DNA of 64,000 nucleotides from Candidatus Cloacimonadota bacterium (GCA_030613025.1 JAUWMT010000007.1:4882-68881); one strand, 5' to 3'; counted from the first letter of the stretch, positions 22,811 through 40,410 are shown. The notes: a model not told the origin generated them from the sequence alone. Numbers and translations are program-made.

Positions 22811-24132
22811 TTTGGTTCAATTATTTCCCAGTGACCATATGTTTTTCCACCTTTTCTTCTGATGAAACCTTCCTTTTTCAGCTTATCAATTTGATATTTT
22901 ACACCATCTTGTGATATATTAAGAAGTTCAGCTAATTTTGTTCTTGTTAGTGATGGGTTCTCTTTGATAAGATCAAGAATTCTTTGGGTAGTTCTTTGGG
23001 TAGTTCTTTGGGTAGTCTTAAGGGGTAAACTTGTATCTCTCTGGAAGATAACCTTGAATCCAGACTTTAAATTTTTAAAATTGACCTCTACTCCTTTAGA
23101 ATTGCATTCATCATACATTCTTTTTAGACCTGATCCCCATTTTTCGATGTCCCGCGAGTAATATAATATCCTGGCAATAAGGGGATTTCGAAGAACAGAT
23201 TCTTCCTCACCTTTGATGTAATCTTCCGGAGTCATTCCTTCGGGGAAATTGCCGGGATTCCATATTTCAACCCGATTCCGGAATATTGAGATCTTGTTTG
23301 CTTCCGGTTTGAAATAATCACGATGGCATAGAGAATTTACCAGTGCTTCTCTTATTGCATCGATTGGTATTTCCGGAATTTCAACTCTTTTAAAATTCTG
23401 GAATTCAACACGCCAATGAATGTTTTTCGAAATATAGGTTTCTGCTTGTGCTAAAATATCAAAAACTGTACCATGATACTCTTTAATGTCTAAAAAAGTT
23501 GTTTTGTCTTTTCCTGCAAAGATAGCAGCTTGAAGCTCGAGAAGATTGTTATCACAGAATAACACCTCAACTGCTTTGAGTGGTTTCTCCTCTTTATACA
23601 ATTTGAGTTTTTTCAATGCCGTTTTGATGTTTGTAAAAGGAAAGTTGATCCTTTTTGCATCTGCACCCTTTTTGATGTATTCTTTTAATTTGGCAGTATT
23701 AATTTCAGACAGACTTTCTCCAGAGAATTGGGTGTCCCAATATATATGTCTTTTCTTTGAGAAAAATCGTTCCAATTCCGCAACGGTCAATTTCTTGTTT
23801 TCATCAGCAACTCTAATATATGCTCGTCCGTATGCAAAGTAAGGCGCTTCATAACCTGAAAATTCTACTTTGATGCATTGCCTTTGATCCAAGATAATTT
23901 CACTGATCTTTGGGTATATTTTGGGTTCTACATTGTCTGATATTACCCGGGAAATTTTTCGTAATGTGTTTTCAGAAACATCTTGTCCCACGATCTCACC
24001 GTTATTTTTAATACCAAAATAGAGTGTTCCCTTTTGGTGTTTGTTTAAGATGCTTACTGTAGAAATTATGGCTTCTTTAAGTTCAGAGGTCGATTTTTTT
24101 AGTTCTAGTGTTTCCGATTCTTTGAATATCAT
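22807..24132 (-). CDS. AlbA_2 (divergent AAA/putative DNA-binding) plus HATPase_c_4 plus C-terminal wHTH protein
   Basis: The likely start is MIFKESETLELK (24132); the longer listed ORF begins inside the repeat. The stop codon overlaps the miaB ATG (ATGA). An internal RTTQRTTQRTTQR is encoded by 3×12-bp tandem repeats at 22981-23016. Confidence 0.65.
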   Translation of the reverse strand: MIFKESETLELKKSTSELKEAIISTVSILNKHQKGTLYFGIKNNGEIVGQDVSENTLRKISRVISDNVEPKIYPKISEIILDQRQCIKVEFSGYEAPYFAYGRAYIRVADENKKLTVAELERFFSKKRHIYWDTQFSGESLSEINTAKLKEYIKKGADAKRINFPFTNIKTALKKLKLYKEEKPLKAVEVLFCDNNLLELQAAIFAGKDKTTFLDIKEYHGTVFDILAQAETYISKNIHWRVEFQNFKRVEIPEIPIDAIREALVNSLCHRDYFKPEANKISIFRNRVEIWNPGNFPEGMTPEDYIKGEEESVLRNPLIARILYYSRDIEKWGSGLKRMYDECNSKGVEVNFKNLKSGFKVIFQRDTSLPLKTTQRTTQRTTQRILDLIKENPSLTRTKLAELLNISQDGVKYQIDKLKKEGFIRRKGGKTYGHWEIIEPK

Positions 24133-24173
24133 TTTTTTACACTTTCTGTTTATCCAGCCCCAGCCGACATACC

Positions 24174-24230
24174 ACAAGCTCGCTGTCTGCCACATTCATC
24201 TGGCAGCCGTAGGTTCGGATGTAGAATTTA
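24174..24230. repeat. 57-bp direct repeat, copy 2 (duplicate of the miaB 5' end)
   Basis: On the minus strand this encodes M-K-L-L-KFYIRTYGCQMNVADSELV then diverges and stops after about 35 codons. Confidence 0.9.
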
Positions 24231-24433
24231 AGGAGTTTCATATGGGTGATTTAATCTACCTTTATCTTCATTTATCTATATTCTTGAACATCTTGTTAAG
24301 CTCTTTATTTTGTGTGTATTATTTTTCACTTTATTTCCTATAAGTGGAAATATTTTAATTCTTATATAACATAATTTCTTGTTCACAATTTCAACTTGCA
24401 ACCGAGCAAATATTCTTATTACATAGAGGATAA

Positions 24434-24922
24434 TTAATTACTTTTTTGAGAGATATTATTTTTTTTGATAATATCTCTGATATTTGTGATATCCTGCTCA
24501 GTAATACGATGTATTATTGATTTGCATTTTACAAAAAATTTTGGTATCTGATTAATAACCTTCAAATAAAATTCATTATTAATTTGCGGATTAGTATAAT
24601 ATTGATTTTCAATTCGTTGTTCCATTGCTTGTTCTAAAAATGTTAACTCTTCATCCGTAAAATAATCGGTGAGATATGACTGTGCAAATAGTATTGTACA
24701 TTTATGAATTTCAGATTTAACACCAATTTTTTGTAAAATTGAATATAGAGAAAAATACATCGCATAATAAGCAGTGGATATTTTCCAACCCTTATTACTG
24801 ATTTCACTCATTGTTTCAATAGCTTCTTCAGATTTTTTTAGATATGCCTCCGCAAGATTTGTATTTGGCTCAATAAGTTTTAATCCTCTTTTTTGATTAA
24901 AACACCAATTTAATATACTCAT
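24434..24922 (-). CDS. HEPN-like helical partner protein of the adjacent nucleotidyltransferase
   Basis: 162-aa helical protein whose start overlaps the stop of the NTase gene (ATGA). No canonical Rx4-6H motif seen. Confidence 0.35.
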   Translation of the reverse strand: MSILNWCFNQKRGLKLIEPNTNLAEAYLKKSEEAIETMSEISNKGWKISTAYYAMYFSLYSILQKIGVKSEIHKCTILFAQSYLTDYFTDEELTFLEQAMEQRIENQYYTNPQINNEFYLKVINQIPKFFVKCKSIIHRITEQDITNIRDIIKKNNISQKSN

Positions 24923-25518
24923 AAAATTCTCATAATGAATTGATCCGGTTGTGTAATTATGATATGATTTTGAATAACTTCCTTTAATAAATGATCTTTC
25001 AATTTATCCTTTTCAAAAAGCTCATATGAATAATGAAATATGTTTGTTGAAATATTATATATGCTCGAAATTTTTTCTATTTCGGATTTATTGCATTCAC
25101 CAATCACGCAGATGTCTAAATCTGAATCTTCATTTGCATTTCCCTTGGCATAACTTCCAAACAGTAAACTTATACCATCTACTAAAGGTGTGATTTTTTC
25201 AACTATTTGCGAAATAAGAGAGTAATTTTGTAAAAACGCAATTTTTTTATATTGCTCAGTTAAAATCAAATAATCTTTTGAATTTTGGTTATCTTGAAGT
25301 GAAAATACTCTTATTTTTCCTTTAATTTTTGAAGTTAAGATTCCTTTTTTCTCAAGATCATCGAGAATTCTTTGAACGGTTTGAAGCCCAATGTCAATTT
25401 TTTTATATACCTCACGAATATAATATTCTGCTTTATAACCATTGGTAAAGAGGGTTAAAACCTTTAAATGATTTTCTGTAATATGTAGTTTCATACTATT
25501 GTCTCCAATTTGAGACAT
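24919..25518 (-). CDS. Nucleotidyltransferase-domain protein with N-terminal wHTH (MntA/AbiEii-like)
   Basis: LLFGSYAKGNANEDSDLDICVIGE is the GS…DxD polymerase-beta NTase motif. N-terminal HTH is IREVYKKIDIGLQTVQRILDDLEKKGIL. Confidence 0.65.
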   Translation of the reverse strand: MSQIGDNSMKLHITENHLKVLTLFTNGYKAEYYIREVYKKIDIGLQTVQRILDDLEKKGILTSKIKGKIRVFSLQDNQNSKDYLILTEQYKKIAFLQNYSLISQIVEKITPLVDGISLLFGSYAKGNANEDSDLDICVIGECNKSEIEKISSIYNISTNIFHYSYELFEKDKLKDHLLKEVIQNHIIITQPDQFIMRIL

Positions 25519-29905: not shown

Positions 29906-30587
29906 TATATTCTTCAAATTACAAGTTAGACTTAAATTAAGTTCTAAACCCTAATTTCTAATGACAAATAAAATGTCAAAATTTAAATGTCAAAGTAATT
30001 TTTTCTTCCTTGATTTAATTACAATTGATGAGAAAATTAGATTTACCTCGTTAGATAATTTCATATATATCAGAAAGAATATCTAATAGCATAAATATCT
30101 AACAGGGTTAAGTTCATTAGCTTCTTTCCAATAAATTTTTGCTTCATCTTTTAACTTTGGAACTGCTTTTGAAATCATCCTCAACCAATGTTTTGATTCT
30201 TTAGACTCCTTTTTACAAATACCTATTTTATGTTCGAAATCTCTTTTTGATTCTGCACAATCTGTTTTTTACCCCGTTAGATAATTTTTTACAGATATAT
30301 AACCGATATAATACTTTCTATCGTTAAACCTTTTCCACACTTAAATAAAGCATACATATCTAACGGGGCAGGTAATTAGCACCAACACTTGTACCCGCTT
30401 TAACTAATTGAGTAATTAGAGGTAGAGTTATCGGATTTGGAGGGATTTTTTTTGCAAATTCGATAATATCCTCACCAAATTTTGCAGTTCTCTCCTCTAA
30501 ATCGAATCTCTTTTTATTTGCCATTTGTCATTTGAAATTTCATTAGAAATTAAATATTTGGAATTAGTAATTTAAATTTCTCAGGAT
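29906..30587. mobile_element. About 0.7-kb non-coding insertion upstream of gpmA, flanked by a ~37-bp direct duplication of the gpmA start and containing two MITE-like units
   Basis: The direct repeats GGAAATTACTTAAATAAATCATATTT(T)AACCTTT(T)ATA lie at 29869-29905 and 30588-30624. The two internal units carry CCCCGTTAGATA…TATCTAACGGGG IRs (30045-30106, 30272-30368). The interior is roughly palindromic (AATTTCTAATGACAAATAAAATGTCAAAA). Confidence 0.55.
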
Positions 30588-32561: not shown

Positions 32562-34982
32562 TTACTTCTTCCAATCGTAGGTCAACTTGCCGCACCCGCA
32601 CCTGATTTTGCTTTCCACATTGTCAAAATATTTGATAGAAATAAACTTCCTACACCCGTCGCAGTAAAAGATATGAATGGTCTTTTCAATATCTTCCCAT
32701 ATTGCTGCTAAGTCCTCAATACTTTCTGTAAACTCATTGTCATGAGACGTGACATTACCAATGAACATTGGCATTCCTTTCAGTTTTTGAATGTTGGCCT
32801 TATCCTTTAATCCATTTCCCTTCTTTGAAATTCGACCATGCACAACATCCAATAGTTCAGCAGCCATTCTCTTTTCATTTATTTCATTATATCTAAAAGC
32901 AACTTGGGCCTCTATGTTGTAGGCTATTTCCTTCATTACCTTTTCAGTATAAATCCTTATATAATTACCTAGTCCTTCTTTGTCTTTGGCCTCAAATTTC
33001 TTGAGAATACGTTCCTTGATGTCAGTTATGCCTTCTACAATTCCTACCCCGTTCTCTTTTGACCACTTAAAATCTTGAAGTAGCCAACCTTTACTTTTCA
33101 CATCACTGGCCACTAATTCAAAGAATCCCTGCTCATGTGTAAGTAACAGAATTTGGTAGTTGCTGAACTTATCAGTTAGCAGTTTTGCGAACCTTGATCT
33201 GTGTGGCCTGTCAAAACTTGAAATAACATCGTCAAGGATAAAAAACTCGTTCTGCTTATTGAATGCTTTAACAGAAGCTAAAAAGAAAGATAGGCCAAGA
33301 CAGTTAATGTGACTTTCACTCAAATAGGCGATTGGTGGCGTTTTGGTCTCATCAAAGAAGCTATACTCGATTGTTATTCCGACTAGGTCATCGTTTTTGT
33401 CCTTGATTGGCACTAACTTAATATCCTCAATTTTCTCATTGGGGTTCATAGTAGTGTAATATTCATCAATGTTTGCGGAGAACATTTCAAGAAATACATT
33501 TAAAGCTTCTTCTTGCCTTTTAATAAAATCGGCAAAAAGCAGTTGGAATGTAACTTGTTGTTTTGTTAGTATTTCTTGTTGTCTTTTAATGCTTTGATAT
33601 TGATTGTAAGCGGTGACCGCGTGAAATAGCTTGGTGTATATTTGGAATTTTATATTTGATCTCTTACTTTCTGTGAGCGTCTTTGCCGTGCCTTGTGCTT
33701 GCTTGGCAAGCTCAGATATATCTTTCTTATCAATCTGTATTTTGCTCGGCTCCTGAATTAGGTCTTTAGCTATCAATTCCTTTTTAAGTTCATCAGAAAA
33801 GGCATTCAAGGAGGTTTTAATTTGCTGAACCTTCTCAAGAAGTTTGGCTTGCGTTTCCTCTTTGAAAAGCCTCTCTTTGAGTAACCCATCAATCGTATTG
33901 ATATTGACTCGCAAAATATCTTTTAATTTTTGTCCCTGTTCTCCTAACTTATCCTTCTCTATTTCTAGTTCCTCTAATTCTTTAATCCTTTCATTTAATT
34001 CTATAATCAATTCTATTCTGCTCTTTTCTTGTAGGCAGAGTGGACAGTAATCATCCAGCACAACATCGTTTTTCAAAACACTCTGCCCTTCTTTCAGTAA
34101 AGCGAGAAGTTGTAGTTTTTGAATATTCTCAGGGTCTTTTTGCAGTTCGTTGTAGGTTGTGTGATAAATATTATATCTTGAGTGTATGCTATCAATGTTC
34201 CCGATAATTTCCGTTAAGTTTTCTCCAACCTTCGTATAGAAACTAATTTGCTCTAAAAGAGCTGTTTCTTCTTTGGTTTCAATTGCTTTTAGAACATCTT
34301 GAATATCTTTATGCAGTTTAATATCCTTTTCAATTTGTAATGGTTTTATCAACTGATTTGCTCCCGCAAAAAGTTGGTCATCAGTATAGGCATTTTGTCC
34401 GAGATTTTCGAGAACAACAGCTTGTTGGGCATTTTTCTGATTATCATAGTTGGCTGCTCTGATATTGCGAGCAATTCTTCCAGCTGACTTCTTGAGAAGA
34501 CCGCGGATATCAGTAACAGCAGAAAAGCCAATAATGTTTTGAAGTTTCTCTAGCTTCTCGCCCGGGCGGGCGACAATGAAGCCTACCAGATCTCTGTAGC
34601 GTAGAATTAAATTCTCAGATTGAGAAGCATGCAAATAATCTTTGAAATAATCTGTTGTATTGGATGTAGTTACCTCTAATGAACTGTCAATAGTTTTTGT
34701 TGCATTCAATTTGTTATTGGAATACTGAATGTTAACGAATGCATCTTCATTATTAGGGATAAACAGACTGCGCAATGACCCTCTTCCTTTGGTCACCCCA
34801 GTTTCTTTACTAATCAAATGCTCAACACCATCTGAATAGTACCACTCAACGGCATCAGTCAAAGAGCTTTTCCCCGATCCATTCTCACCAAATATCAGAA
34901 TTGAATTTTTATTTAAGTTTAGTGATAAAGGGATTTTAATGCCCCGTATTCCACTAATTTCGATTGATTTAATCTTTGCCAT
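32562..34982 (-). CDS. Rad50/SMC-like ABC ATPase with CxxC zinc-hook and C-terminal Zn-ribbon extension (RloC-like anticodon-nuclease candidate)
   Basis: Walker A GENGSGKSS; long coiled coil with CPLC near residue 305; signature-like LSESH; Walker B FFILDDV; H-loop LLTHEQ. The ~140-aa C-terminal extension has KRMAAE…H and CDGC…CGCG. Confidence 0.6.
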   Translation of the reverse strand: MAKIKSIEISGIRGIKIPLSLNLNKNSILIFGENGSGKSSLTDAVEWYYSDGVEHLISKETGVTKGRGSLRSLFIPNNEDAFVNIQYSNNKLNATKTIDSSLEVTTSNTTDYFKDYLHASQSENLILRYRDLVGFIVARPGEKLEKLQNIIGFSAVTDIRGLLKKSAGRIARNIRAANYDNQKNAQQAVVLENLGQNAYTDDQLFAGANQLIKPLQIEKDIKLHKDIQDVLKAIETKEETALLEQISFYTKVGENLTEIIGNIDSIHSRYNIYHTTYNELQKDPENIQKLQLLALLKEGQSVLKNDVVLDDYCPLCLQEKSRIELIIELNERIKELEELEIEKDKLGEQGQKLKDILRVNINTIDGLLKERLFKEETQAKLLEKVQQIKTSLNAFSDELKKELIAKDLIQEPSKIQIDKKDISELAKQAQGTAKTLTESKRSNIKFQIYTKLFHAVTAYNQYQSIKRQQEILTKQQVTFQLLFADFIKRQEEALNVFLEMFSANIDEYYTTMNPNEKIEDIKLVPIKDKNDDLVGITIEYSFFDETKTPPIAYLSESHINCLGLSFFLASVKAFNKQNEFFILDDVISSFDRPHRSRFAKLLTDKFSNYQILLLTHEQGFFELVASDVKSKGWLLQDFKWSKENGVGIVEGITDIKERILKKFEAKDKEGLGNYIRIYTEKVMKEIAYNIEAQVAFRYNEINEKRMAAELLDVVHGRISKKGNGLKDKANIQKLKGMPMFIGNVTSHDNEFTESIEDLAAIWEDIEKTIHIFYCDGCRKFISIKYFDNVESKIRCGCGKLTYDWKK

Positions 34983-34983
34983 A

Positions 34984-35178
34984 TTATTCCTCTTTTGTTA
35001 CGAGGTCTTGTTGAAATAGTTGCCCCATTGCATTCTGGATGTTAGTATCAGTTAATTTTCCTTCACGGTATAAGGAAGTAAGTATTTCAACAGTTTTTTT
35101 GTCTGCCCCTTCTATTTTCTTAATCTCAGCGAAGAACTCTTCAATTATTTGTTTTCCACTTTTAATCTTGTTACTCAT
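34984..35178 (-). CDS. 64-aa hypothetical protein, translationally coupled to the ABC ATPase
   Basis: Its stop TAA lies 1 nt before the ATPase ATG. Confidence 0.45.
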   Translation of the reverse strand: MSNKIKSGKQIIEEFFAEIKKIEGADKKTVEILTSLYREGKLTDTNIQNAMGQLFQQDLVTKEE

Positions 35179-35202
35179 GATATAATACTCCTATCATATG
35201 CT

Positions 35203-35673
35203 TTATTCAAAATATGGCCAGTCAATTATAAATTTGGCTTTTAATTTTTTATCTAATATCTCATAACTGGATTTATTGTTGCATATAGGATACACTCCAT
35301 ATTTTTTAACAAAGTCTAGGATGAAATAACTTTCTAGGTCTTCAATCCTGTTATTCCAGAATTTGCGAAGCATTTCGAAGTTAATATAAGTAAAATAAAG
35401 TTGTCCTACCTTGCTGTAGTTGATAAGTCCCCAGTTCTTACTTTTCCCTTCTAGGTGTTCTGCCAGTCGACTACCAATGCTGTTTGTTTTTTTTTCGCTC
35501 ATTCCAATGTAGAGCAATCGAGATTGTTTGAAAGGGTATTGAATTTTTGTCTTATTATTAAATATGAAATATAGTCCCGTTAATCCTATGAGTGGCTTTA
35601 TGTTAAGTATTTCAAATGTCTTTGGACTGTCAAAAAATATTTTTAGCTCTGTTATTTCATTAATCATACTCAT
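35203..35673 (-). CDS. GIY-YIG nuclease-family protein
   Basis: GLYFIF…(11 aa)…LLYIGMS…RLAEHLEG matches GIY-(x9-11)-YIG…R…H. Confidence 0.55.
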   Translation of the reverse strand: MSMINEITELKIFFDSPKTFEILNIKPLIGLTGLYFIFNNKTKIQYPFKQSRLLYIGMSEKKTNSIGSRLAEHLEGKSKNWGLINYSKVGQLYFTYINFEMLRKFWNNRIEDLESYFILDFVKKYGVYPICNNKSSYEILDKKLKAKFIIDWPYFE

Positions 35674-35790
35674 GTATCTCCACTTGTATATTGACCAAGT
35701 TGATTCCTTCGTGTTGATTCTAAAATTATAACGCTATCTAAGCTAGGAGCGAAGGTTTGATTATTACAATTCTATTTCTTGAAATATATT

Positions 35791-36018
35791 TTATATGAGT
35801 TTTGATTCGTAACCTTTTCTAACTTTTGTGTTGATAAAACTATTTAATCCTTTCCCTGCAAAAGCAAGCAATTTCATTTTTTCAATGTTTGTATTACCGG
35901 CACTTCTGTAAGTATAAATATAAACTGCGCCAGTACTGAATTGAACAGTTATTGAGTCATCACCAATCTCGTAGGCTGCGACTCCCGAATTTTTCCCTAA
36001 GTTCTTATAACGTTCCAT
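35791..36018 (-). CDS. KTSC-domain protein
   Basis: 75 aa; ITVQF.TGAVYIYTY…FINTKVRKGY pattern. Confidence 0.45.
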   Translation of the reverse strand: MERYKNLGKNSGVAAYEIGDDSITVQFSTGAVYIYTYRSAGNTNIEKMKLLAFAGKGLNSFINTKVRKGYESKLI

Positions 36019-36616
36019 AATGAATCTCCTTTATGGTTTATGGTTAAATTACTTAAACAAATAACATATGTTTTCTACTAATTATTTATCAATCATTACT
36101 CACACCAGCCATATAATCTATTTAGTCATTAATTGATTATTGGTTCCTAAGGTATTTATGACAAATTTCCCGTGTGCTCCATTTAGATTTTTCATAATTG
36201 CTAACAATATTCCGGCTCTTTAAAATAAATACAAATTTTCATTATTTTTTTCACCTCAGTTTTCATAATCATAACATTTGTTGGCTTTTTTATTAAATCA
36301 AATCGCATACGTCAAGAAAATATTTATATAGGAAATATTATTGGGCTGAGCAGGGAGAAAATGAAAATTTGAAATTCGAAATTGGAAAGTAGATAAATGT
36401 GTGAATATTACCAGTTCATTCTTATTTCAATAGGTCATCCAATTCAAAAGAAAGGGGGGCTGATTTTTCTGTATTTCATAATTATGACGATTTTGTATCA
36501 AAAGTGAAATGACCTGCCAATAAAAAAAACAGGAAAAGCACATTGTGATTAAAGCAAAATTTCCCGGGAGCTTCATTTAGATCTTTCATAATTATTAACA
36601 AATTTTCACCCAAACT

Positions 36617-36818
36617 AATACAAAAAATTTATAAACCTTGCCTATATTTTAAGCATTTTATAAACCTATTCATCATTATACGAGATGAGGTTTTCATGAA
36701 ATATACTGTTTTAGGATCCAGTTCCTGCGTTCCTGATTCGCAGAAAAATTCATCCGGTGGATTGTTAGAGATTAACGGCATTTTGATGCTTGTGGACTGC
36801 GGAACAGGTGCGCTTCAT
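36617..36818. repeat. 202-bp direct repeat copy A: promoter region plus first 41 codons of the MBL-fold gene (~93% identical to 38339-38540)
   Basis: ATG at 36696 opens MKYTVLGSSSCVPDSQKNSSGGLLEINGILMLVDCGTGALH then diverges and stops. Confidence 0.9.
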
Positions 36819-37551
36819 CCAAAAGAATGTACCACTTCCCGCTATTGTCGTAATTTCTAAAATCAACGATCTTTTCTTTATGTTCATCAGAAATTAAGTC
36901 CGAGCGGTAATAAAAAACAGTTATCTCATTTTTAGCAAACGGCAGGGCATTTTCCCGTTTCAAACTCTTAATCTTTTTATACTGGCTCGGCGTTACGCCA
37001 AAAGTCGCCTTGGAAATTTCTGCGGTTAAGATTTCGTAGTCTTTTTGTTCCCGAGCGCCTCGTTCTTTCCATTCGTCGGTCAATTCCTCGCGGATGGCAA
37101 TGCCCCGCATTCGCTTTTCTATCCAATCGTCACTATAACCCTTGAGTTTATAAAGTGTTCTTGTCCGCTTTGTCGCCAATTCCGGATTTTCTATTTCCTG
37201 TACTCGTTCATACCCGACTTTTGCCAGCCAACGCTTAAATGGTTCGACTTTGGGAGAAGGGATAGTTTGAATAATGCGAAAAATTGTCTCTGTATTAGCA
37301 CAATCGGTTTCACGCATTTTTCCGTCTGATGCTTCTAATTTCAACTGTCCGATTTTTTCGGACAGTTCAGAATACCCCTCGTTTATAAGTTTCTTTTTTA
37401 GGTCATTCCAATATTTTCTCGGTCTTTCGGTGCCTGTTAGCACCTCAATAATATCAATAACCGAAAACCACCATTCGTTATCATGGATGGTTTTTCTGAC
37501 TTTTTTGCCCTTAAAAATGGCGATTTTAGTTGTGGTAATTTCTTTTTTCAT
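36772..37551 (-). CDS. Bro-N / DinD-like (DNA-damage-inducible protein D family) protein
   Basis: NEWWFSVIDIIEVLTG…RKYWNDLKKKL resembles the DinD/Bro-N N-terminus. Its last ~15 codons read through repeat copy A on the opposite strand. Confidence 0.5.
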   Translation of the reverse strand: MKKEITTTKIAIFKGKKVRKTIHDNEWWFSVIDIIEVLTGTERPRKYWNDLKKKLINEGYSELSEKIGQLKLEASDGKMRETDCANTETIFRIIQTIPSPKVEPFKRWLAKVGYERVQEIENPELATKRTRTLYKLKGYSDDWIEKRMRGIAIREELTDEWKERGAREQKDYEILTAEISKATFGVTPSQYKKIKSLKRENALPFAKNEITVFYYRSDLISDEHKEKIVDFRNYDNSGKWYILLDEAHLFRSPQASKCR

Positions 37552-37566
37552 AATTTGTCTCCGGGG

Positions 37567-38013
37567 TCAGTCCCACCAGATTAATGGCTTAATAAGTTTA
37601 TAATCCAATTCTTTGGTGTTTATTTTGGTCCCGTCGCTGAATTCCACCTCATCTTTTCGGATAGCTTTTATCCATTTACCGGTCAGGTTTGATAATGTTT
37701 CGGCAATATCAATGCTTGTCCCGAGCGGAGCCGAGGGATCGGGGTAAAGTTTTGCCATATCTACAGTTACCCTATTATTCTCATAATCAATTTCCAATGC
37801 CTTTAGCATTTTCTCGTCTTTCATAAAGACATATTCTTGATACGGAGACCTGCCGGGGACATTAAATAAATCACCATCCTTATATTTGCAGTTTGCCAGT
37901 GCTTCTTCATATTGTTCAAGTTCGTAATATTTGATAAAACCGCCCTCGCCTTCAATTTTTGCGCCAATAAAAATATCCTGAAGCGCTTTGAAAAATTTTT
38001 GTTCTTTAGTCAT
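37567..38013 (-). CDS. Hypothetical 148-aa protein, co-oriented partner of the DinD-like gene
   Basis: 15-nt intergenic gap to the DinD-like gene; no recognisable motif. Confidence 0.4.
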   Translation of the reverse strand: MTKEQKFFKALQDIFIGAKIEGEGGFIKYYELEQYEEALANCKYKDGDLFNVPGRSPYQEYVFMKDEKMLKALEIDYENNRVTVDMAKLYPDPSAPLGTSIDIAETLSNLTGKWIKAIRKDEVEFSDGTKINTKELDYKLIKPLIWWD

Positions 38014-38338
38014 ATTATCCTCTATTAGATAATTTAATAGTTAATTCCATTATAAATATTTTTATTTTCAAAACCATATTAGAATCAGCGCCTTTTTTGT
38101 TTTTCGCAATTGTATCTAACTATTATATAAATTCATTGTTATTATTATCCCAATATTGGCAGATTAAATATGCAAATTTCCATTATTTTTTCACCTCAGT
38201 TTTTCTAATCTTCGCATATGGCTATTTTCTATAAAATCATATATTATCCGTCAATAAATTTTTAAATATATCGAATGGGTAGTTAAGGATTTATAATTTA
38301 TATATTCTGCAAGACATATGCAAACTTCCAACTGATCC

Positions 38339-38540
38339 AATACAAAAAATTTATAAATCTTGCCTATGTTTTACACATTTTATAAAGCTATGCATCAGTA
38401 AGCACGAAGAGGTTTTCATGAAATATACTGTTTTAGGATCCGGCTCCTGCGTTCCTGATCCGCAGAAAAATTCATCAGGTGGATTGTTAGAGATTAACGG
38501 CATTTTGATGCTTGTGGACTGCGGAACAGGTGTGCTTCAT
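38339..38540. repeat. 202-bp direct repeat copy B (native promoter plus start of the MBL-fold gene)
   Basis: Aligned by eye to 36617-36818. Confidence 0.9.
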
Positions 38541-39167
38541 GCAATTCCAAGATCGGGCTATGACTATAAAAATATAGATGTAGTATGCCTGACACACCTT
38601 CATCTCGACCATGTAAATGATTTCGGAGCACTGCTTTTTGCATTGAGTCATGATCCTGAATGCAAGAGAAAAAAAGAACTGCTAATTATTGCATCAAAGG
38701 GATTTTCGCAATTCTATGACAACCTGAAACGATTATATGGTGATACGCTCGAGAACTCTTTTGATGTCGTGGTCAGGGAAATGGGAAATGAAGATTTCGA
38801 TTATGGAGATATAAACATACAGACGCTTCAGACGTTTCATACAGAAAACAGTATTGGATTCCGGTTTACGTATAAAGAGAAAGTGGTATGTATCTCCGGT
38901 GATACGGGTTATAATGATAATATAATCACTTTATGCAAGGATGCTGACCTTGCTGTGCTGGAGTGTTCATTTCCGCAAAAGGTGCATGAGGGAATCCATC
39001 TGAACCCCCTGCTTATTTCGAAGATCTTGGCAAAAGCTGATGTAAAAAAAGTGCTGCTTACCCACCTTTATCCTCATACTGAGGACTATCCCATTATTGA
39101 GTATATTACCCGAGAATACGATGGCGATATTACGATCGCTCAGGTTGGGAAATCTTATACTATATAA
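38418..39167 (+). CDS. MBL-fold metallo-hydrolase (RNase Z/ElaC-like beta-lactamase superfamily)
   Basis: HLHLDHVND is the HxHxDH motif; 249 aa. Confidence 0.75.
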   Translation: MKYTVLGSGSCVPDPQKNSSGGLLEINGILMLVDCGTGVLHAIPRSGYDYKNIDVVCLTHLHLDHVNDFGALLFALSHDPECKRKKELLIIASKGFSQFYDNLKRLYGDTLENSFDVVVREMGNEDFDYGDINIQTLQTFHTENSIGFRFTYKEKVVCISGDTGYNDNIITLCKDADLAVLECSFPQKVHEGIHLNPLLISKILAKADVKKVLLTHLYPHTEDYPIIEYITREYDGDITIAQVGKSYTI

Positions 39168-39377: not shown

Positions 39378-39480
39378 GCTACTCCCCCAAATCGGTAAAA
39401 TATATTTGCGGATGGATAGTGGTATCCGTCCCTACAAATTAAATTTCATATGTATAGATATTTCCCTTTCCCCCAATGAC
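39378..39480. repeat. About 100-bp repeat, copy 1, flanking the HEPN/MNT cassette
   Basis: AAGTCCAGTCTGCTA…ATATTTGCGGATGGATAGTGGTATCCGTCCCTACAAATTAAATTTC…AATGACC. It contains a 9-bp-stem hairpin GGATGGATA-GTGG-TATCCGTCC. Confidence 0.75.
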
Positions 39481-39593: not shown

Positions 39594-39995
39594 ATGAAAT
39601 CGAAAGACCTTGATATCGAAAAGATCGTTAATTATTGGATTGGATCGTCAGAGAGTAATTATTCGACGATGCACAATCTGTATAGATCAAAGGATTATGA
39701 TTGGGCGCTTTTTGTTGGGCATCTGGTTTTAGAAAAATTGATGAAAGCGCTGTATGTAAAATTGTTGAAAATGCATCCTCCATATATACATGACCTTTTA
39801 AGATTGGCTGATAAGATGAGTTTGGAAGTAACTCCCGAGCAAGAAGAATGGCTGGACACGATCACAACTTTTAATATTAATGCAAGATATGATAATTATA
39901 AACTCAATTTTACCAAACTATGCACAAAGGAATTTGCAGATATTTGGATGCCAAGGATTGAGAGTGTACGAGAATGGATAAAAAAGCAGCTATAA
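39594..39995 (+). CDS. HEPN-domain protein (toxin-like partner of the MNT)
   Basis: 133-aa helical protein; overlaps the downstream NTase gene by 22 nt; typical HEPN/MNT pair layout. Confidence 0.6.
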   Translation: MKSKDLDIEKIVNYWIGSSESNYSTMHNLYRSKDYDWALFVGHLVLEKLMKALYVKLLKMHPPYIHDLLRLADKMSLEVTPEQEEWLDTITTFNINARYDNYKLNFTKLCTKEFADIWMPRIESVREWIKKQL

Positions 39996-40282
39996 ATATT
40001 ACAAAAAGGTTCATAAGAGAGCTGCCCAAAGACCTGTCAGTAAAAAAAGTTTATCTTTTTGGATCATATATAAAAGGTGTCTACAACGAAGATAGCGATA
40101 TCGATATCGCAGTTGTTTTTGAAGATATCAAAGATTATTTTTCCGTTCAATTACTATTAATGAGAATTAGAAGAAACATTGATCTGCGCATTGAACCGCA
40201 TCCTTTTACCGAACGAGATTTCAATGAAAGTGATTCTCTGGCGCATGAAATTTTACAAACGGGTGTTGAATTCAATGTGTAG
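39974..40282 (+). CDS. Minimal nucleotidyltransferase (MNT) antitoxin-like
   Basis: LFGSYIKGVYNEDSDIDIAVVF is the GS…DxD motif; 102 aa. Confidence 0.75.
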   Translation: MDKKAAINITKRFIRELPKDLSVKKVYLFGSYIKGVYNEDSDIDIAVVFEDIKDYFSVQLLLMRIRRNIDLRIEPHPFTERDFNESDSLAHEILQTGVEFNV

Positions 40283-40304: not shown

Positions 40305-40410
40305 GGTATAAAGTCCAGCCTGCTAAGTCGGTTACTTAATAAAATTGGTAAACATATTTGCGGACGGATAGTGGTATCCGTCCTTACAAATTAAATTTCT
40401 ATGAAGTATG
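40305..40410. repeat. About 100-bp repeat, copy 2, flanking the HEPN/MNT cassette
   Basis: AAGTCCAGCCTGCTA…ATATTTGCGGACGGATAGTGGTATCCGTCCTTACAAATTAAATTTC…AATGACC. Confidence 0.75.

Follow-up and report, generated by a model that had tools for sequence, protein, structure and literature searches.

A widespread candidate defence cassette built from a zinc-hook ABC ATPase, a small coupled protein and a GIY-YIG nuclease

A 64,000-nucleotide stretch of DNA from a Candidatus Cloacimonadota bacterium (GCA_030613025.1 JAUWMT010000007.1:4882-68881; hereafter the window) carries on its minus strand the gene of an ABC ATPase of the SMC/Rad50 type with a zinc hook, preceded by the genes of a small protein and of a stand-alone GIY-YIG nuclease. 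Judged from sequence comparison, these three genes constitute a real, widespread and unnamed cassette, whose ATPase is predicted to bear a HEPN ribonuclease (RNase) fold of its own. We regard the cassette as a variant of the defence systems that join an SMC-like ATPase to a nuclease, uncharacterised and absent from the defence libraries that were scanned, and we infer that it functions in defence. An initial annotation of the window had proposed a defence cluster of four genes at this place. All four open reading frames (ORFs) were found (Table 1), each with many homologues under purifying selection, and by this measure they are real genes. A description of the cassette was not found in the literature on Lamassu, RloC, HEPN, GIY-YIG, SMC and ABC ATPases, with a mention in a 2020 classification of ABC ATPases being possible.

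Three genes that stay together

The conservation of the locus was followed in 16 genome loci, 80 metagenome loci reached through the family alignment, the loci around exact proteins, and three plasmid loci. Gene order was counted with hidden Markov models (HMMs) of the components on the 90 loci with at least 750 bp upstream, in which ATPase identity ranged from 35 to 100%. The order GIY-YIG, small ORF, ATPase was present in 86 of these 90 loci, and the neighbours are thus conserved together with the ATPase across genomes. What stands of the four-gene cluster is a core of three genes; the fourth gene, which encodes a protein of 75 residues, is facultative and does not belong to the core, because only about 10 of the 90 loci carry it. 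A bulk scan of the 149 nearest flanking proteins returned no further conserved partner gene.

The loci that depart from this order are of note. On alphaproteobacterial plasmids, those of Aliiroseovarius and Brucella anthropi, where the ATPase is about 30% identical to that of the window, the GIY-YIG gene is kept in divergent orientation. The association therefore survives inversion, which argues for functional coupling. On Brucella anthropi plasmid 1 (NZ_CP008817.1) the GIY-YIG ORF (L105:3731-4174, minus strand; HMM E = 3e-42) is missing from the gene table, and for the ATPase and its small partner the annotation goes no further than hypothetical protein. What is left of the GIY-YIG gene in two Candidatus Scalindua genomes is a C-terminal remnant (L003:7687-7778; L022:7623-7775) next to an intact small ORF and an intact ATPase gene, decay of the kind expected for accessory genes. 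These two loci are natural evidence that the pair of small ORF and ATPase can persist without the GIY-YIG gene. L024 (21% identity) and the copy on a Roseibium plasmid (818-residue ATPase), which diverge most from the other members, have no GIY-YIG gene and keep a small overlapping ORF. In light of these exceptions, the ancestral core would be the pair of the small ORF and the ATPase with its HEPN domain, to which the GIY-YIG gene was recruited early and then kept.

The coupling of the small gene to the ATPase gene, proposed initially, is borne out in the window, where a single base separates the stop codon TAA of the former from the ATG of the latter, with a purine-rich stretch just upstream. 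An overlap of 8-14 nucleotides between the small ORF and the start of the ATPase gene was seen in 14 of the 17 loci examined. The protein has 64 residues in the window and 59-85 in the ORFs called elsewhere. It is acidic (pI 4.2-5.4) and predicted by eye to be mostly helical; its N-terminal two-thirds are conserved and its acidic tail is variable. The HMM found the small ORF in 88 of the 90 loci. The protein had no match in Pfam, NCBIfam, PADLOC or PHROG, and its profile had none in the PDB.

Table 1. Features of the cassette in the window, and members of the 75-residue family in the window and in other loci (L numbers)
Feature	Position	Strand	Remarks
SMC/Rad50-like ABC ATPase gene, 806 residues	32562-34982	minus	stop codon included; zinc hook, predicted C-terminal HEPN-fold domain, zinc ribbon
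CPLC zinc hook of the ATPase (C313-C316)	34035-34046	minus	conserved cysteines
Linker and predicted HEPN-fold domain (ATPase residues 626-770)	32673-33107	minus	putative RNase site R676, E680, K684, S746, H747
C4 zinc ribbon (ATPase residues 771-806)	32565-32672	minus	C774, C777, C795, C797
Small partner protein gene, 64 residues	34984-35178	minus	coupled to ATPase gene
Stand-alone GIY-YIG nuclease gene, 156 residues	35203-35673	minus	first gene of the conserved trio
Facultative fourth gene, 75 residues	35791-36018	minus	basic protein; outside the conserved core
75-residue family member, L108	6001-6228		upstream of P2-Old-like gene
75-residue family member, L109	6001-6228		upstream of RloC-type gene
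75-residue family member, L112	3001-3216		

The ATPase and its zinc hook

Pfam SMC_N matched the ATPase over residues 4-624 (6e-17), with weaker matches to AAA_23 and AAA_29. The best PDB matches of the family profile were the heads of SMC and Rad50 proteins, and the search of PHROG gave an SbcC-like match (2e-05). More than 340 homologues were retrieved from many phyla, and their length is nearly constant at 803-808 residues. We examined residue conservation in two alignments, one of 114 close homologues and one of 65 cluster representatives that are only 21-53% identical; the counts out of 66 given below refer to the divergent set. The ABC motifs noted at the outset are all there, namely the Walker A motif GxxGxGKS (residues 32-39), the signature LSESH (554-558), the Walker B motif FFILDD (580-585), the D-loop SSFD and the linchpin T615-H616, and all of them are conserved in both alignments. 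The CPLC sequence read initially as a zinc hook is equally a property of the family: C313 is present in 66 of 66 sequences and C316 in 65, and P314 is also invariant. The insert that bears the hook spans about 350 residues, rich in Glu, Lys, Gln, Leu and Ala and poor in Pro and Gly.

A predicted HEPN fold and zinc ribbon at the C-terminus

Beyond the ABC head, the ATPase continues in an extension of about 180 residues (626-806), for which no sequence match was found in Pfam or the PDB. Scans of the isolated domain against Pfam, NCBIfam, PADLOC and PHROG yielded nothing useful, and its sequence/profile search of the PDB gave no significant match. The AlphaFold2 model of residues 626-806 (predicted local distance difference test, pLDDT, 76; predicted template modelling score, pTM, 0.74) has a bundle of helices and, after it, a small beta ribbon, with the beta-strands at model residues 157-178 making up the zinc-ribbon part. 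In the model the helices are arranged as the four-helix up-down bundle of the HEPN fold. The extension combines, on this model, a HEPN RNase fold with a C4 zinc ribbon behind it, in keeping with the nuclease-like C-terminal domain that the initial annotation had suspected.

The residues of the putative active site are conserved in the divergent representatives. E680 and H747 are found in 66 of 66, S746 in 63, K684 in 62 and R676 in 61, and each cysteine of C774-x2-C777...C795-x-C797 in 61-66. The R676-x3-E680...S746-H747 arrangement and the cysteines are thus invariant, or nearly so, down to 21% identity. The R-x3-E...H and CxxC...CxC patterns recognized initially are therefore present and conserved; the distance from Glu to His, likened at the outset to that in PrrC and RloC, is 66 residues, which is outside the 36-52 stated for RloC. 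An exhaustive search with the profile of the C-terminal domain against 1.84 billion representatives returned only 239 clusters at 50% identity. Essentially all of them are proteins of about 800 residues with the same architecture, or fragments of such proteins, and the module of HEPN fold and ribbon is thus specific to this family of hook ATPases.

The GIY-YIG protein

With Pfam alone the 156-residue protein would not have been recognized, since its score for GIY-YIG is 18 bits and the threshold is 22.4; its sequence/profile search of the PDB gave no significant match. The identity proposed for it initially rests on two other observations. The structure model has the alpha/beta fold of GIY-YIG, a core with only short extensions, and the six catalytic residues (Tyr, Tyr, Arg, His, Glu and Asn) are invariant in 89 of 89 sequences. 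The protein has more than 1500 homologues. Its true start is likely M3, at 35667, which gives 154 residues as in NCBI and in most homologues. Within the set this protein is the most conserved, with a mean identity to the window copy of 65% where the ATPase has 38%, and its identity exceeds that of the ATPase in 84 of 85 loci. This extreme conservation suggests a constrained interface or substrate.

Distribution and genomic context

Copies that are 52-95% identical occur in Cloacimonetes, Planctomycetota (Scalindua), Aminicenantes, Chloroflexota (including Dehalococcoides mccartyi), Desulfobacterota, Omnitrophota and Bacteroidota, and in a metagenome-assembled genome of Heimdallarchaeota. Such a patchy spread across phyla, at this identity and at near-constant length, argues for horizontal transfer. 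No relative of the ATPase was found in IMG/VR or among GenBank phages, and a phage-borne origin is therefore unsupported.

Several copies have neighbours of the restriction-modification (R-M), toxin or transposon kind. The Dehalococcoides copy has GmrSD and type III R-M genes upstream, and Cloacimonetes-type contigs have type III R-M genes downstream of the cassette. The Roseibium copy sits between DarT, RES and TIR genes; the Aliiroseovarius copy adjoins Tn7-like tniQ/tniB and a Mu-type transposase; and an IS3 transposase lies near the copy in L023. In the window, the cassette has as neighbours a Bro-N/PDC-S13 gene, a type III methylase gene of which a C-terminal fragment is left, and a pair of HEPN and nucleotidyltransferase genes.

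A facultative gene shared with other ATPase families

The 75-residue protein had been labelled KTSC, a label that finds no support. The window protein had no match in Pfam at E<=10, no Pfam match is on record for 80 homologues and none was found for divergent members or the phage homologue, and the solved KTSC protein 7x8c reached only E=1.3 with the 75-residue profile. This profile had no significant match in the PDB, and the protein is without a Pfam family. Where the gene accompanies the cassette, distant clades included, its place is immediately before the GIY-YIG gene, the start of which it can overlap. It was also found directly upstream of a P2-Old-like ATPase-TOPRIM gene (L108) and of an RloC-type (AAA_13/PDC-S06) gene that belongs to a type I R-M locus (L109). 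The latter protein, met by chance, has AAA_13, a CVLC hook and FRILVE...EH, and is used below as the RloC-type control. In PHROG the 75-residue protein matched family 17428 at 6e-22 and a further family at 4e-15, and it is 47% identical to an internal segment of a 630-residue virion structural protein of phiKZ-like jumbo phages. By its homologues and their positions, the gene has the appearance of a portable accessory to ABC-ATPase nucleases.

A proposed mechanism

The general model that we find rather probable is that of a self-contained, horizontally mobile cassette of the defence type with the hook ATPase as its sensor, working probably by abortive infection. The observations beneath it are the folds of the domains, the catalytic-type residues that are conserved, the tight linkage of the three genes, the patchy distribution, the occurrence on plasmids, and the R-M, toxin and transposon neighbours. 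We infer the trigger, the substrates, the formation of a complex, what the small protein does, and that there is an anti-phage phenotype.

By analogy to Rad50, RloC and Lamassu, dimers of the ATPase held together through the CxxC zinc hook would survey DNA. The heads would engage abnormal DNA, such as the ends or replication intermediates of an invader, and ATP-driven closure of the heads would bring two HEPN domains together. HEPN RNases generally need dimerisation. The closed state would then be an active RNase that cuts tRNA or other RNA. The GIY-YIG protein may be a second effector, one that cuts DNA and is either held by the complex or released or positioned upon head closure. The small acidic protein, kept at a fixed ratio to the ATPase by translational coupling, might serve as adaptor or inhibitor, silencing the nucleases until the trigger arrives; its gene takes the position that is held by LmuC or by the C-terminus of SbcD.

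Several points weigh against this reading. The anti-phage phenotype and the three-protein complex are conjectured from analogy. As the deepest clades lack the GIY-YIG gene, it may be an add-on and not an integral part. Enrichment in defence islands is modest: the 149 nearest flanking proteins are mostly heterogeneous or housekeeping, with only a handful of R-M, integrase, HEPN or Schlafen proteins, and the argument from context is suggestive, not strong. As for the RNase site, the canonical HEPN motif Rx4-6H is absent, the histidine being within G-N-V-T-S-H with no arginine 5-7 residues upstream, and the loop of S746-H747 is modelled with low confidence. The conserved arginine, R676, is on a different helix, which is the arrangement described for RloC and PrrC.

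A more specific version is tentative, and we put it forward as a possibility below even chance. The cassette may represent a family of dual-nuclease immune systems, in which a hook-bearing SMC-like ATPase with its own HEPN RNase and a tiny coupled controller has, in most lineages, recruited a free-standing GIY-YIG DNase. The 75-residue module, shared with P2-Old-like and RloC-like genes and with copies inside phiKZ-type virion proteins, could in addition be a regulatory or phage-sensing adaptor common to ABC-ATPase nucleases, or a phage mimic of such an adaptor. If the cassette is an immune system, it adds to the known repertoire a widespread unit that current defence finders do not name, with at least 239 clusters of the C-terminal domain and more than 1500 homologues of the GIY-YIG protein, and it links RloC-type tRNases and Lamassu-type SMC sensors, which are usually kept apart. 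It occurs in many uncultured phyla of anaerobic and marine settings. With an RNase arm in cis and a DNase arm in trans on one hook ATPase, it would be a compact model for how SMC-like sensors license nucleases. The conservation of the GIY-YIG protein and the 75-residue module, with its links to Old-like and RloC-like genes and to jumbo-phage virion proteins, both merit study.

Relation to known systems

In Lamassu, an SMC-like protein senses DNA ends and sets a nuclease free; the genes are ordered LmuA-LmuC-LmuB, and the hallmarks of long LmuB are a single CxxC and an hhhhDD Walker B (PMC12663957). The initial annotation had set this system aside, too quickly as far as analogy is concerned. 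The cassette has the same order of nuclease, small protein and SMC-like ATPase, with the small gene abutting the ATPase gene, and shares with long Lamassu the one CPLC, the FFILDD Walker B, an SbcC-like ancestry and the modular gain and loss of the effector; clades of Lamassu without LmuC or without the effector are known. The best PADLOC matches of the ATPase are also LmuB models (PDLC03865 at 4e-21; PDLC03859 at 2e-19, positions 4-597/611). One could thus envision a divergent long Lamassu, with a bare GIY-YIG protein for LmuA, the 64-residue protein for LmuC, and an LmuB that gained a HEPN domain. The LmuB match is generic, however, because the RloC-type control matched the same LmuB model at 7.5e-14, and membership drawn from this HMM was rejected once that was seen. 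The sole solved LmuB-type chain, 9hqu (DUF3732), reached only E=0.003, and only within the coiled coil, with SMC and Rad50 heads scoring far better. In PADLOC no LmuA model matched the 156-residue protein and no LmuC model matched the 64-residue protein, whose likeness to LmuC is one of gene position and not of homology. The 156-residue protein is approximately a GIY-YIG core, with no room for the C-terminal domain of five to six helices that defines LmuA, and neither GIY-YIG nor HEPN is among the listed Lamassu effectors. The window ATPase, in addition, has a HEPN domain and a zinc ribbon of its own. Membership in Lamassu is thus not supported, and we consider this derivation unlikely.

The second comparison is with RloC, whose published definition comprises an ABC ATPase, a Rad50-like insert of coiled coil and CxxC, and the C-terminal triad Arg-X3-Glu-X36-52-His, in which Ser often precedes His (PMC2610378). 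DNA and zinc regulate the C-terminal nuclease of this hook-ABC ATPase (PMC2610378, PMC3458546), and the nuclease domain was later classed, as was that of PrrC, as HEPN (PMC3710099). The resemblance is considerable. Both families have proteins of about 800 residues with the same domain order, an ABC head interrupted by a coiled coil that bears a CxxC hook (near residue 300; the hook separates RloC from PrrC), and a C-terminal domain, of predicted HEPN fold in the cassette, with an invariant R-x3-E...S-H in which Ser precedes His as described for RloC (PMC2610378). Both are linked on occasion to type I or type III R-M, and the same 75-residue accessory gene can precede either, the genuine RloC-type gene of L109 included. 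The R-x3-E helices are locally similar (IRIYTEKVMKE in the window and FRILVERAIEN in the control).

Sequence comparison nevertheless separates the two. AAA_13 matched neither the window ATPase (E<=0.1) nor any of 10 divergent members (E<=0.01). The PADLOC model PDC-S06 gave 26.9 bits for the window ATPase, over residues 310-630 only, that is, the part from the hook to the ABC motifs, compared to 1091.7 bits for the control. When the profile of the C-terminal domain was aligned to this one RloC-type protein, the sole comparator, hhalign returned a probability of 0.6%, and BLASTP aligned the ABC motifs only. On these grounds membership in RloC/PrrC by sequence was rejected. The cassette family differs further in its wider Glu-to-His spacing, in the added C4 zinc ribbon, and in its near-obligate partners, the small coupled protein and the GIY-YIG protein, which are not reported for RloC. 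The initial annotation had left the choice between an undescribed system and a new RloC variant; the undescribed hook-ATPase cluster is what remains, and the assignment to the RloC/PrrC family by sequence falls. That the ATPase is a true, highly diverged RloC anticodon nuclease with two accessory genes, excising or cleaving tRNA at the anticodon after DNA damage, appears to us quite improbable.

Septu (PtuAB), PARIS (AriAB), Gabija (GajA) and P2 Old follow the same logic as the cassette, an ABC ATPase sensor with a nuclease effector. PtuA and AriA have weak N-terminal HMM similarity to the window ATPase, and the P2-Old-like gene shares the 75-residue upstream gene with the cassette. In contrast to the cassette, these families have neither a long hook-bearing coiled coil nor a HEPN fusion, and their nucleases are HNH or TOPRIM, not GIY-YIG.

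A selfish addiction module of the toxin-antitoxin kind has also been considered, with the small acidic protein as a labile antitoxin of the HEPN domain, of the GIY-YIG protein or of both, stabilising plasmids and islands. The small protein is indeed encoded directly upstream of, and coupled to, an enzyme of toxin type; the plasmid copies lie near partition, transposon and other toxin-antitoxin genes; and HEPN domains are common as toxins of such modules (PMC3710099). Yet an ATP-driven, hook-dimerised sensor of about 800 residues is far more machinery than addiction needs, and all its ATPase motifs are strongly constrained. The idea overlaps in part with the defence cassette favoured here, as toxin-antitoxin and abortive-infection functions are not mutually exclusive; as a separate explanation we give it very little weight.

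The least probable of the alternatives, an SbcCD or Rad50-Mre11 analogue for repair or genome maintenance in which GIY-YIG takes the place of SbcD/Mre11, can call on the SMC/Rad50/SbcC heads as the closest relatives of the ATPase in sequence and PDB searches, on dimerisation through the zinc hook, on a nuclease gene upstream, on sources that name some homologues "SbcCD ATPase subunit", on the GIY-YIG nucleases that work in repair (UvrC, SLX1) and on the many loci among housekeeping genes, but it is countered by a patchy, cross-phylum distribution at up to 95% identity, which marks the cassette as accessory and transferred, not core, by copies on plasmids and beside transposition and toxin genes, by decay of the gene in some genomes, and by a conserved domain of HEPN RNase type that has no role in repair of the SbcCD kind. 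The coiled coil of the window ATPase is also much shorter than in SbcCD/Rad50-Mre11 and is combined with the C-terminal HEPN domain and zinc ribbon. A phosphoesterase of the Mre11/SbcD type is not linked to the cassette: no Metallophos family was found among the recurrent neighbours, the upstream positions being those of GIY-YIG and the small ORF in the 86 loci counted above.

Surroundings of the cassette in the window

The cassette had been placed initially in an AT-rich stretch bounded by repeats. Its G+C content is indeed low, only modestly so, at 0.350 compared to 0.384 for the window (8.6th percentile of windows of equal size). The repeats are elsewhere: those of sizeable length bracket the neighbouring segment with Bro-N and the methylase fragment and not the hook-ATPase cluster. 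The main pair, 36599-36822 and 38321-38544, is 89% identical, and a second pair is formed by 36234-36280 and 38174-38220. The duplicated stretch, of about 370-590 bp, consists of the upstream region and the 5' end of a gene for a protein with a metallo-beta-lactamase fold (38418-39167). Between the copies are the Bro-N/PDC-S13 gene (36772-37551), whose match is confined to positions 4-200 of the 286 in the model, and the C-terminal fragment of the type III methyltransferase (37567-38013). An insertion or recombination that disrupted a type III R-M system seems to have left the segment 36234-38544 as its scar.

A scan of 30-41 kb against Rfam found no RNA family. Scans for promoters and terminators did no better than on shuffled sequence, and the transcription unit is therefore proposed from gene spacing only. 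The sole tRNA that a scan found in the window is at 5.1 kb, and an island boundary linked to a tRNA is therefore absent.

The metallo-beta-lactamase-fold protein (plus strand) has a sub-threshold match to the anti-Pycsar protein Apyc1, 27 bits where the cut-off is 50, over no more than its N-terminal 77 residues; the protein, whose gene lies in the accessory stretch, is probably an ordinary hydrolase of the metallo-beta-lactamase fold. The HEPN gene (39594-39995) and the nucleotidyltransferase gene (39974-40282) form a pair of the toxin-antitoxin type. Direct repeats of 50 nucleotides (39398-39447 and 40350-40399), 94% identical and with a hairpin-forming core, flank this pair in a cassette-like arrangement, possibly attC-like or similar to a miniature inverted-repeat transposable element. 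The kilobase of lowest G+C content in the window is 24001-25000 (0.284, with a mean of 0.384), and may be another foreign or intergenic segment. An ORF of 54 residues (30360-30524, minus strand) adjoins direct repeats of 29 nucleotides (30042-30070 and 30268-30296), and its product presumably resembles the N-terminal part of the four-helix-bundle "23S rRNA intervening-sequence" proteins.

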